A DNA stretch of 64,000 nt from an uncultured Chloroflexia bacterium (GTDB lineage: Bacteria > Chloroflexota > Anaerolineae > Anaerolineales > UBA4823): the NCBI GenBank assembly GCA_963842455.1, contig CAWJHE010000005.1, forward strand, positions 21,909-85,908, in the 5' to 3' direction. Positions 1-1,909 of this stretch are shown in pieces. The notes below the pieces were generated by a model. It ran no database searches, was not told the DNA's origin, and saw only the letters and a program-made list of their open reading frames with translations. Position 1 is the stretch's first letter. The number at the start of each line of letters is the position of its first letter. Made by a program: the position numbers and the translations under genes.

Positions 1-289
1 TTGATTGAGCGAGATAATGCTTGGCATGATTGGATGCGGCAAATTCTAACAGGTTTCGACTAAAATCAACGCCCAGGTATCTTCCTTGAAAGCCTTCTTG
101 GAATAAACTGCTGGCGATTTCTCCATTCCCACAACCAAGATCGAGGACAGTCTCATGGGGAGAAATGGTCTTCATCACTTGTCTGACCCCAGGCTGCAAA
201 CGTTGCCGGGTTGCTGCAAATGGTTGTGCAAAGGTCTGGTAAAATTCTTGATTGATTTCAACTATTTTTTTAACAGTGCTTTTATCCAT
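1..289 (-). CDS. Class I SAM-dependent methyltransferase, Trm9/ALKBH8-like; 3' end runs off the window edge; absent from the ORF track
   Basis: Manual translation from ATG at 289 is open to position 1: MDKSTVKKIVEINQEFYQTFAQPFAATRQRLQPGVRQVMKTISPHETVLDLGCGNGEIASSLFQEGFQGRYLGVDFSRNLLEFAASNHAKHYLAQS. Contains SAM motif I (VLDLGCGNG) and post-I (YLGVDFS). TATAAT lies 6 nt upstream. Confidence 0.9.
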   Translation of the reverse strand, partial: MDKSTVKKIVEINQEFYQTFAQPFAATRQRLQPGVRQVMKTISPHETVLDLGCGNGEIASSLFQEGFQGRYLGVDFSRNLLEFAASNHAKHYLAQS

Positions 290-313
290 GCTCGAATTAT
301 AAATGCTTGTGAC

Positions 314-1909
314 ATGAAAATTGACAACAAAACCTGGGAAGAATTAAGAAGCATAACGCCAGAAAAGATGGCAACTGCCCGATCAGTACTTGAAGAGATC
401 CGGCAGGGCAAGACAGTCATTGATGCCGTCCGGATGCACCCTTTAACGGATGGTGGTTATATCGCCAAGGGAATGTTGGTAGCAGCCTATCGAAAACTGG
501 TTGAAGACGGAATATGGGCGGAAGATGATGCTTTTTTGGCCAGCATACGAATGAAGCCTATCCGGACTCTATCGGGCGTGACCACGGTAACCGTATTGAC
601 AAAACCATATCCTTGCCCAGGTAAATGTATTTTTTGCCCAACAGATATTCGCATGCCCAAAAGTTATCTACCGGACGAACCGGGAGCCAGGCGGGCAGTA
701 CAACATCAATTTGATCCCTTTGATCAGGTCGTATCTCGGATTGAGGCATTAGAGGCGGTTGGACACCCAACAGATAAAATAGAATTATTAATCCTGGGTG
801 GCACCTGGAATGCCTACAAACGCGATTACCAGAAATGGTTTGTACAGCGTTGCCTGGACGCTATGAACCAGACAGATTCCCAATCCTTAGAAGAAGCACA
901 ATTGCTGAATGAAACAGCCAATCACCGCAATGTGGGGATGGTTATTGAAACCAGACCAGATAGTGTAAAGCCTGCCGAATTGTCCTGGATTCGTTCTCTT
1001 GGGGTAACCAAAGTCCAAATGGGAGCGCAAAGCCTGGATGATCGTATCCTGGCATTGAATCAACGCGGCCATACGGCAGAAGAAACATTACAGGCAATGC
1101 ACTTGCTACGAGCGGCTGGCTTCAAAGTCGTTTTGCATTGGATGCCTAACCTGCTAGGTGCAACATTGGCATCTGATCGGGAAGATTTTACGCGCTTGTG
1201 GAAAGGCTATTGTCCCGATGAAATAAAAATTTACCCCAACCAATTGCTAGAAAGCGCAGAATTGTATCAATATTGGTTGAGAGGTGAATACCGCCCTTAC
1301 TCCACCGAGGAGTTGATTGCGTTGATTGCGGATGTTAAGCTAACAATTCCGCGTTACTGTCGAGTAAACCGCATTATTCGGGATATACCATCCACGAATG
1401 TGGTGGAAGGCAACAAACGCACCAGCCTGCGCCAGGATGTCCATGAAGAGTTGGCGCGGCGCAATGTTGTTTGTCAATGTATCCGATGCCGTGAGGTGCG
1501 CGCACGAAAAATTGATCCTGATCAACTGCAATTAAACGATCTGGTTTATGAAACAGGTGCAAGCCAGGAACATTTCATTTCGTTCGATACTCCTGATGAT
1601 CATGTGGTAGGCTTTTTGCGTCTTTCGTTGCCAGGGCAGAATGCGCCTGATGTGAACATACCAGATTTAATCGGAGCGGCAGTTATCCGAGAAGTTCATG
1701 TTTATGGTCAGTCCTTGCCTGTGGGAATAGAAGAACATGGCGCTGCTCAACATGTGGGTTTGGGGGCGCGCTTGATTCAATCCGCCGAAGATATCGCAAG
1801 GGCGCAAGGTTTCAGGAAAATTGCGGTAATTTCAGCGCTTGGTACCCGTCAGTACTATCAGAAACAGGGCTTTCATAACGGGAATTTGTATCAAATCAAA
1901 GCCTTGTAA
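314..1909 (+). CDS. elp3: Elp3-family tRNA uridine(34) acetyltransferase (radical SAM + GNAT/KAT)
   Basis: KPIRTLSGV, CPGKCIFCP Fe-S motif, PKSY, ETRPD, RVNRIIRDIP, CQCIRCRE zinc site, REVHVYG, QHVGLG. Start moved from 155 to ATG 314 because the upstream part overlaps the divergent methyltransferase. Confidence 0.93.
   Translation: MKIDNKTWEELRSITPEKMATARSVLEEIRQGKTVIDAVRMHPLTDGGYIAKGMLVAAYRKLVEDGIWAEDDAFLASIRMKPIRTLSGVTTVTVLTKPYPCPGKCIFCPTDIRMPKSYLPDEPGARRAVQHQFDPFDQVVSRIEALEAVGHPTDKIELLILGGTWNAYKRDYQKWFVQRCLDAMNQTDSQSLEEAQLLNETANHRNVGMVIETRPDSVKPAELSWIRSLGVTKVQMGAQSLDDRILALNQRGHTAEETLQAMHLLRAAGFKVVLHWMPNLLGATLASDREDFTRLWKGYCPDEIKIYPNQLLESAELYQYWLRGEYRPYSTEELIALIADVKLTIPRYCRVNRIIRDIPSTNVVEGNKRTSLRQDVHEELARRNVVCQCIRCREVRARKIDPDQLQLNDLVYETGASQEHFISFDTPDDHVVGFLRLSLPGQNAPDVNIPDLIGAAVIREVHVYGQSLPVGIEEHGAAQHVGLGARLIQSAEDIARAQGFRKIAVISALGTRQYYQKQGFHNGNLYQIKAL

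Follow-up and report, generated by a model that had tools for sequence, protein, structure and literature searches.

Head to head at the left end of a stretch of DNA from an uncultured bacterium of the Anaerolineales (phylum Chloroflexota) lie two genes, elp3 and the gene for a class I S-adenosylmethionine (SAM)-dependent methyltransferase that is a divergent relative of eukaryotic Trm9. The stretch, called the window in the following, comprises 64,000 nucleotides of contig CAWJHE010000005.1 of the assembly GCA_963842455.1 (G000:C5:21909-85908 in our numbering; G000, the host assembly, has 4.18 Mb in 17 contigs and is 85% complete). The two divergent genes are probably a bacterial version of the archaeal and eukaryotic xcm5U34 pathway, in which Elp3 and the Trm9 relative would together convert the wobble uridine of certain tRNAs to 5-methoxycarbonylmethyluridine (mcm5U34). 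Such a two-gene module had been proposed in an earlier note on this DNA that was made from the sequence letters. The linkage of the genes, their co-occurrence, the match of the substrate-side half of the methyltransferase to Trm9 and the failure to find mnmE and mnmG all support the proposal, but the closeness to Trm9 had been overstated. The context of the genes, i. e. linkage and co-occurrence, is stronger evidence than the similarity of sequence and fold.

The linkage of elp3 and the methyltransferase gene is conserved. In a sample of the order that covers 61 genomes from 18 families, profile searches counted by script found the methyltransferase in 56 genomes, Elp3 in 56 and both in 55; one genome (G038) has the methyltransferase only, at the start of a contig, another one (G039) has Elp3 only, and four genomes with a completeness of 63-91% have neither gene. 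The two genes are located on one contig and are divergent in 53 of the 55 genomes that have both, and in 48 of these the matches are at most 500 nt apart. Among 80 independently fetched GTDB loci, all labelled Anaerolineae or Chloroflexota, Elp3 is encoded divergently upstream of the methyltransferase in 69, with a gap between the matches of 14-187 nt in 59 loci and of 800-1000 nt in the other 10. Of the 11 loci without Elp3, four have an upstream sequence shorter than 1 kb, and the other seven have 4 kb of it, yet no Elp3; in all five genomes that were searched among these seven, Elp3 is present elsewhere in the genome. As a control for synteny, four other neighbours of the locus were followed, and they recur in 23, 20, 18 and 7 of the 80 loci. 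The adjacency to elp3, whose conservation the earlier note had wanted to see checked, is kept across the order and, with a second methyltransferase type described below, in other classes of the phylum. In 10 of the 80 loci (L022, L030, L038, L051, L052, L058, L062, L073, L079 and L086), a gene for a PAPS/APS reductase (CysH-like) of about 245 aa is found between elp3 and the methyltransferase gene, on the strand of elp3 (PF01507, E = 1.2e-44, C-terminal ECGLH; for example L030:3243-3971, minus strand).

The phyletic pattern leads to the same pair of genes. We sampled 251 Chloroflexota genomes that are at least 85% complete. Elp3 was found in 50 of them: 29 have a methyltransferase of the type present in the window, as detected with a whole-length profile of this Anaerolineae-type family (profile A1, 29 homologues), and the other 21 have the second type (profile A3); no genome has both. 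None of the 201 genomes without Elp3 carries either type, and Elp3 is present in all 29 genomes with the A1 type, which scores at least 146 bits in these genomes, whereas the next generic matches reach only about 66 bits. Every Anaerolineales genome of high completeness that was sampled has Elp3. Most bacteria use MnmE and MnmG to modify the wobble uridine. MnmG was found in 113 of the 251 genomes, including one that carries a flag as unpublished (G097), and never together with Elp3 in the whole sample; families with Elp3 (e. g. f15, 16/16; f16, 7/7; f39, 8/8) and families with MnmG (f33, 18/18; f40, 16/16; f43, 18/18) are disjoint. In the genome studied here, neither MnmG nor MnmE was found above the cut-off, the only signals being a 19.5-bit match to an FAD motif and matches to GTPase domains; the check for mnmE and mnmG suggested in the earlier note therefore ended with neither gene found, a provisional absence in a genome that is only 85% complete. 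In this lineage, the module of Elp3 and methyltransferase occupies the place that MnmE/MnmG have in most bacteria. Two further observations concern MnmG. First, 88 of the 251 genomes have neither Elp3 nor MnmG. Second, MnmG is present in one of the 61 genomes of the order sample (G031, which has neither Elp3 nor the methyltransferase), where it is encoded on a short contig (G031:C435:4-1161); the lineage of this genome may truly have returned to MnmG, or the contig may stem from contamination.

The identity of Elp3 is clear: The protein scores 483.5 bits with the NCBIfam model TIGR01211 (ELP3; cut-off 350) over model positions 47-521 of 522, and its translation contains the C-x3-C-x2-C cysteine triad. 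Among 14 control genomes, TIGR01211 had matches in the four archaea only. In most of the 69 loci with Elp3, the homologues align from residues 1-8 of the reading frame that begins at position 314, and thus this start codon is likely the correct one rather than the upstream ATG at position 155. For archaeal Elp3, the formation of 5-carboxymethyluridine (cm5U34) in vitro has been reported, according to the passages of a 2020 review that deal with it (PMC7663514).

The earlier note had read a minus-strand open reading frame (ORF) that starts at position 289, 24 bp from the Elp3 start codon at 314, and these coordinates are correct; the quoted translation ...FYQTFAQPFAATRQRLQPGVRQVMKTISPHETVLDLGCGNG... 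is found exactly in the ORF 2..289. The description of this methyltransferase gene as un-called, in contrast, reflects an artefact of the window edge: The ORF was absent from the ORF track because the gene runs off the window, and the whole gene is present in the genome. The retrieval of the full ORF gave a complete gene (G000:C5:21400-22197, 265 aa) that extends 509 bases past the left end of the window. The 96 codons that are visible in the window encode the helix at the N-terminus, with Y17, F24 and R28, as well as SAM motif I (D50-x-G-C-G-N-G). This motif and D75, the acidic residue at the end of strand 2 that is equivalent to D72 of yeast Trm9, are invariant in the family, as expected for a class I SAM-dependent enzyme, and the AlphaFold2 model of the protein (pLDDT 92.5) has the Rossmann-type strand order. 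The Pfam matches (Methyltransf_31, 23, 12, 25 and 11) are to generic class I domains only.

It is the substrate-side half of the protein that points to Trm9. A profile of this half (A2, 25 sequences) had seven matches in the PDB with E values up to 1, the best of which was Yarrowia Trm9 (5cm2_Z, E = 1.6e-4), followed by 3sm3 (E = 0.011). Thus, the substrate-side half singles out Trm9, whereas searches with the whole protein do not. In the A2 alignment, H142-H143 fall on H126-H127 of the Yarrowia protein, W172 on W156, and R214-Y215-x-H217 on R192-Y193-x-H195. As given in the sections of Letoquart 2015 (PMC4678810) on these residues, H127, W156 and R192 of the Yarrowia enzyme are essential and H126 is weakly required; R29, D72, H116, W145, W168, R241, Y243 and N271 were found by mutagenesis to be needed for the activity of yeast Trm9, and R29 and H116 were proposed to position the carboxylate of cm5U. 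Six of these eight essential yeast residues appear to be kept in the Anaerolineae-type enzyme and two are replaced. Within the family, no variation is seen at R28, D75, H142, W172, W206, R214, Y215 and H217, and at least 90% of the rows have H143. The pair of histidines that follows strand 4 in yeast (H115, H116) is represented by H142-H143, and the tryptophan after strand 5 (W145) by W172. For the tryptophan of the hairpin (W168 in the yeast VPW motif), an hhalign comparison of the profiles A1 and A3 puts W206 of the motif DYLLDW on the VPW tryptophan. In the N-terminal helix, which this hhalign comparison left out, Y17, F24 and R28 are invariant and are spaced by 7 and 4 residues, as are Y18, F25 and R29 of yeast Trm9. 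The earlier note had aligned this region with the N-terminus of yeast Trm9; the residues Y18, H24, F25, R29 and K31 named in the relevant section of PMC4678810 fit the spacing Y-x3-A-x2-F-x2-T-R that it gave.

A second Trm9-like type links the window's enzyme to a complete Trm9 signature. From the 21 genomes that have Elp3 and no methyltransferase of the A1 type (0.9-2.4 Mb, other classes of the phylum), 20 Elp3 neighbourhoods were fetched, and in 19 of these a gene of about 220 aa with a weak match to A1 (E = 1e-9 to 1e-19) divergently adjoins elp3. The alignment of these proteins (A3) shows the motifs FRH, D, HH, VWN, VPW, RYYH (RYYH/RYYY) and RN with an invariant N209, so that all eight essential Trm9 positions are kept, and its top match in the PDB is 5cm2_Z (E = 9.1e-22, 80.8 bits). 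The two types are related to each other: hhalign of A1 and A3 gave a probability of 99.5% (E = 7.6e-23) and aligned DYLLDW to VPW and RYVHH to RYYH. When the phylum was searched with A3, this type was found in exactly those 21 genomes (in one of them, G092, next to elp3, and in another one, G138, on a different contig) and in 0 of the 230 others. The source names of ten distant A3 representatives are UbiE or 'class I SAM-dependent', and two of the ten are archaeal (DPANN).

Several observations weigh against the assignment to the Trm9 pathway. (i) Comparisons over the whole length do not favour Trm9. With phmmer against the PDB, Yarrowia Trm9 was the 16th of 24 matches; with the A1 profile it was sixth (E = 5.6e-10, profile positions 25-223 on chain positions 2-181, a match over almost the full length that in itself speaks for kinship), behind 3sm3 and others; and in a Foldseek search of the PDB with the AlphaFold2 model, 3sm3 came first and 5cm2_Z had rank 39, although its target-normalised TM-score of 0.78 was the highest among the Foldseek matches listed. 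Foldseek failed to separate the class I methyltransferases and was therefore given up as a discriminator for Trm9, and Trm9 was not the first match either when the C-terminal 146 residues were searched against the PDB as a single sequence. Whole-length comparison is non-discriminating because the SAM-binding half is common to hundreds of families. The closeness to Trm9 suggested in the earlier note is not fully borne out, since the searches with the whole sequence and fold rank generic methyltransferases first: The protein is a divergent relative, and the structural comparison that had been asked for favours Trm9 among the solved structures for the substrate-side half and not for the whole length. 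(ii) No NCBIfam model reached its cut-off (best CpaM, 43.7 bits versus 180), and neither Pfam nor NCBIfam has a Trm9-specific model for comparison. Public annotation is mixed: Among the matches listed, 26 of 120 homologues were automatically named TRM9 by JGI, which speaks for the kinship, whereas NCBI calls them 'class I SAM-dependent methyltransferase', and the ESM Atlas contained only the family's own Chloroflexota clusters and two Actinomycetota clusters of unnamed methyltransferases. (iii) Two positions essential in yeast Trm9 differ. The equivalent of Y243 is V216 (RYVHH), so that the R-Y-Y-H strand is kept in part only, and the position of N271, the proposed reader of O2 and N3 of the uracil, is taken by the invariant D242-G243, a pairing made by position since the printed 5cm2_Z alignment ends just before. 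Moreover, HMMER places W206 six columns away from W179 of 5cm2_Z, and the pairing of R28 with Yarrowia R40 is deduced from where the A1 match begins (profile 25, chain 2) and not read from a residue-by-residue alignment. (iv) Of the 21 genomes that the A3 profile finds, 19 had contributed to its construction, and thus its informative part is the absence from other genomes. In the genome studied here, the Elp3-adjacent gene is only ninth of 11 methyltransferase matches to A3 (33.7 bits), although it has the longest A3 coverage among them (positions 41-194); the low rank leads to the conclusion that the Anaerolineae type is a strongly diverged relative. (v) All genomes counted belong to one phylum and are kin, and therefore the counts overstate independence. 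(vi) The 2020 review states in the relevant passages that bacterial Elp3 occurs only in Dehalococcoides and that there is no evidence of xcm5U derivatives (PMC7663514).

With these reservations, the following route is suggested by the residues and the gene content. Stand-alone Elp3, using SAM and acetyl-CoA, would add a carboxymethyl group to C5 of the wobble uridine, yielding cm5U34 in the encoded split-box tRNAs Lys-UUU, Glu-UUC, Gln-UUG, Arg-UCU, Gly-UCC and Leu-UAA. The 265-aa methyltransferase would then move a methyl group from SAM to the carboxylate of cm5U34 to give mcm5U34. In its active site, R28 and H142-H143 may orient the carboxylate, a role that has been proposed for the yeast Trm9 residues R29 and H115/H116, and W172, W206 and R214-Y215 may hold the uridine. 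Finally, a thiolase of the MnmA type, if functional, would add the s2 group on some of the tRNAs, and the likely product of the route is mcm5(s2)U34.

The other parts of this route were sought in the genome. It encodes 46 tRNAs as predicted by ARAGORN, among them the six named above. These split-box tRNAs are the usual carriers of xm5U34. ARAGORN also predicts a selenocysteine tRNA (tRNA-SeC, UCA) and a tRNA labelled Pyl (CUA), and the latter may be a suppressor tRNA or a true pyrrolysine tRNA, or else be mislabelled. A further point against a complete route is the state of the 2-thiouridylase of the MnmA/TrmU type (G000:C14:229465-230515), whose match is split into two adjacent fragments (161.8 and 197.4 bits, with a cut-off of 237) that differ in frame and include one TAA; either the gene is frameshifted or the assembly contains an error. 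CmoA and CmoB were not found above the cut-off in this genome. We therefore expect no cmo5U carboxylate as an alternative substrate, and this candidate was dropped. The independence from Trm112 that the earlier note had considered found no support: A stand-alone 71-aa protein of the Trm112 family is encoded on another contig (PF03966, 31.4 bits; cut-off 22), and the gene, which is unlinked to the pair of elp3 and methyltransferase, is conserved (37 of 41 relatives have it). A structure prediction for the methyltransferase in complex with this Trm112-like protein scored 0.00, which speaks neither for nor against binding, and the enzyme may need such a partner. Elsewhere in the same genome, a Trm112-like zinc knuckle is fused to the N-terminus of a class I methyltransferase (ORF L090:1489-2454 on G000:C11, which runs off the locus); such fusions of Trm112 and methyltransferases are cited by reviews as a hint that bacterial Trm112 partners methyltransferases. 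Among the long homologue representatives of the window's methyltransferase that were examined, none is fused to Elp3, the search leaving aside the 'longer' length class; in one (P0388) the fusion partner is a WecG-type glycosyltransferase domain, and another one (P0340) has no second Pfam domain.

How well does the formation of mcm5U34 compare with other explanations for the pair? The one to be taken most seriously, even if we consider it unlikely, is that the methyltransferase does act on Elp3-modified tRNA and that the product is not plain mcm5U but an undescribed xm5U34 derivative. The enzyme might accept only thiolated or otherwise altered cm5U, serve a different set of tRNAs or methylate another atom of the wobble nucleoside. 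Two points lead to this idea, namely changes at uracil-contacting positions and motifs peculiar to the family: The replacements of Y243 by V216 and of N271 by D242-G243 affect the two positions that contact the uracil ring or the carboxylate in the Trm9 docking model, and SEWQFLNS, RIQPW and DYLLDWRxGG are invariant in the Anaerolineae type and absent from the A3 type and from 5CM2. The weak A3 score fits as well, and linkage and co-occurrence with Elp3 are equally strong under both explanations. What favours the methyl ester is that the carboxylate-positioning residues R28 and H142 are invariant, with H143 in at least 90% of the sequences, and so are W172, R214 and Y215; for such an active site, a methyl ester is the simplest chemistry. 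Furthermore, both types partner Elp3 in sister lineages, and no sampled genome has both. A bolder form of the same thought, to which we give little credence, is that the Anaerolineae-type enzyme branched off from Trm9 as a line of its own and makes an undescribed xm5U34 derivative with Elp3, in a module that displaced MnmE/MnmG in whole orders.

It appears improbable that the substrate is unrelated to tRNA, e. g. a small molecule or some protein, possibly Elp3, and that the pair is kept by shared regulation from a divergent promoter. The generic domain assignments, the inconsistent public names (UbiE, UbiG, TRM9, 'class I SAM-dependent') and the best whole-length neighbours, which are uncharacterised or act on small molecules (3sm3, 3d2l, glycine N-methyltransferase), would be in line with this view. 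It does not account well for the fact that both Trm9-like types are confined to genomes with Elp3 and present in all 50 of them, that the genes are present together even when they are unlinked (5/5), that the substrate-side half is nearest to Trm9 among the solved structures, and that the sister type A3 has the complete Trm9 signature. That the adjacency is nothing but inherited synteny is very improbable and was already disfavoured by the control: Shared ancestry within one phylum does inflate every count, but the other flanking genes occur in 7-23 of the 80 loci as compared to 69 for Elp3, the pair persists across classes with both proteins diverged to about 30% identity, and it stays intact around the extra gene tolerated in 10 loci. 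The formation of mcm5U34 by Elp3 and the Trm9 relative is thus retained as the preferred explanation.

The features of the locus are compiled in the table. A scan for two-hexamer promoters and terminators gave nothing in the spacer between the two genes and no excess over shuffled sequences at the locus. A single hexamer of the -10 type is present in front of the methyltransferase gene. Of 51 related loci, 46 have a TANNNT hexamer whose end is 4-12 nt (in most cases 6 nt) away from the start codon downstream, as compared to 183 of 2600 random positions (7%). This suggests that the hexamer is a candidate promoter for a leaderless methyltransferase mRNA; the -35 region would then fall inside the coding sequence of elp3. 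No tRNA gene was found within the 64-kb window. In the neighbourhood, 1.9 kb past the end of the Trm9-like gene, lies the gene for the 16S rRNA methyltransferase RsmG/GidB on the minus strand (L001:6809-7615, i. e. G000:C5:18717-19523; PF02527, E = 5.4e-51). The classical partner gene of RsmG/GidB is gidA/mnmG, which was not found in this genome.

Features of the elp3-methyltransferase locus (positions in the window)
Feature	Position	Strand	Details
Trm9-like class I SAM methyltransferase, first 96 codons	2..289	-	ORF list, full translation; ATG at 289, open at left edge
Divergent spacer between both start codons	290..313	.	24 bp; CAT 287-289, ATG 314-316 (from the sequence)
TATAAT hexamer (-10-like)	296..301	-	ends 6 nt before the methyltransferase start codon
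Elp3, radical-SAM/GNAT, predicted tRNA uridine-34 carboxymethyl (cm5U) synthase	314..1909	+	531 aa plus stop; TIGR01211
Radical SAM domain of Elp3, residues 101-285	614..1168	+	PF04055, E = 4.1e-14
Radical_SAM_C domain of Elp3, residues 301-381	1214..1456	+	PF16199, E = 5.3e-18
GNAT acetyl-CoA-binding domain of Elp3, residues 419-520	1568..1873	+	PF00583, E = 7.7e-06

Among the sampled Chloroflexota genomes, all those with Elp3 also have a Trm9-like gene, in most cases arranged head to head with elp3, which differs from the picture drawn in the 2020 review. A more recent paper speaks, in the part concerned, of 'numerous bacteria' with Elp3 (2026, PMC13315578). According to the pertinent passages of Bourgeois 2017 (PMC5372719), no bacterial genes similar to the eukaryotic Trm112-dependent methyltransferases were detectable, a view from which our data likewise differ. 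Our full-text search of the literature brought up no account of a bacterial pair of elp3 and a Trm9-like gene, supplementary alignments, which could list bacterial homologues, being outside its scope. The idea of a new bacterial member of a known pathway is largely right, with the methyltransferase of the window belonging to a diverged subfamily. The question whether bacteria make mcm5U can now be directly addressed in cultivable Anaerolineae, small stand-alone relatives of Trm9 are on offer for structural work on cm5U recognition, and the findings bear on how the Elongator pathway spread between the domains of life.

Comparison with known systems helps to define what is special about this module. 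The pathway of MnmE/MnmG (with MnmC or MnmM) is its functional analogue, with the same split-box tRNAs as targets and C5 of their wobble uridine as the site of modification; its enzymes and its chemistry (cmnm5/mnm5) are unrelated to those of the Elp3 module, and the two are mutually exclusive in the 251 genomes. On the side of the methyltransferase, the closest solved structure over the whole length is 3SM3, a SAM-dependent methyltransferase of unknown function from Methanosarcina mazei (best PDB match of the profile, E = 6.3e-13, and first in Foldseek); the alignment extends into the C-terminal half, but in the printed alignments 3SM3 has neither the HH pair nor the tryptophan after strand 5. 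The crystallised Elp3 of Dehalococcoides mccartyi (DmcElp3) is likewise a stand-alone bacterial Elp3 of the same phylum, called a rare bacterial example in the relevant part of Lin 2019 (PMC6367351). Elp3 of the window is longer (531 aa as compared to frames of about 460 aa for the comparison with DmcElp3) and scores lower with the ELP3 model than the proteins of the small-genome classes (483 versus 550-584 bits), and the passages of the DmcElp3 literature that were consulted mention no neighbouring methyltransferase. Comparable in organisation are the archaeal systems of Haloferax volcanii, with Trm9-Trm112, and of Sulfolobus solfataricus, which also have a stand-alone Elp3 without Elp1, 2, 4, 5 and 6 and a Trm9 homologue, whose gene clusters with elp3 in S. 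solfataricus; the host here is a bacterium. The clustering in S. solfataricus is stated in Grosjean 2008 (PMC2584109, passage on these genes), and van Tran 2018 (PMC6144793, part on the partner network) lists the Trm9 orthologue among the validated partners of Trm112 in H. volcanii. As compared to eukaryotic Trm9-Trm112 (Yarrowia 5CM2, yeast Trm9 and the ALKBH8 domain), the methyltransferase differs by an identity of only about 17-19% in the Foldseek alignments, by the changed equivalents of Y243 and N271, by its extra invariant motifs and by a gene that is arranged head to head with elp3. It shares with these enzymes the class I SAM methyltransferase fold, the HH pair after strand 4, a tryptophan about 29 residues further on and, later in the chain, R-Y-x-H; the pattern aromatic-x3-A-x2-aromatic-x3-R in the N-terminal helix and a tryptophan-bearing beta-hairpin in front of R-Y-x-H may also correspond. 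Trm9 acts downstream of Elp3, and it is this place in the pathway that we propose for the bacterial methyltransferase.

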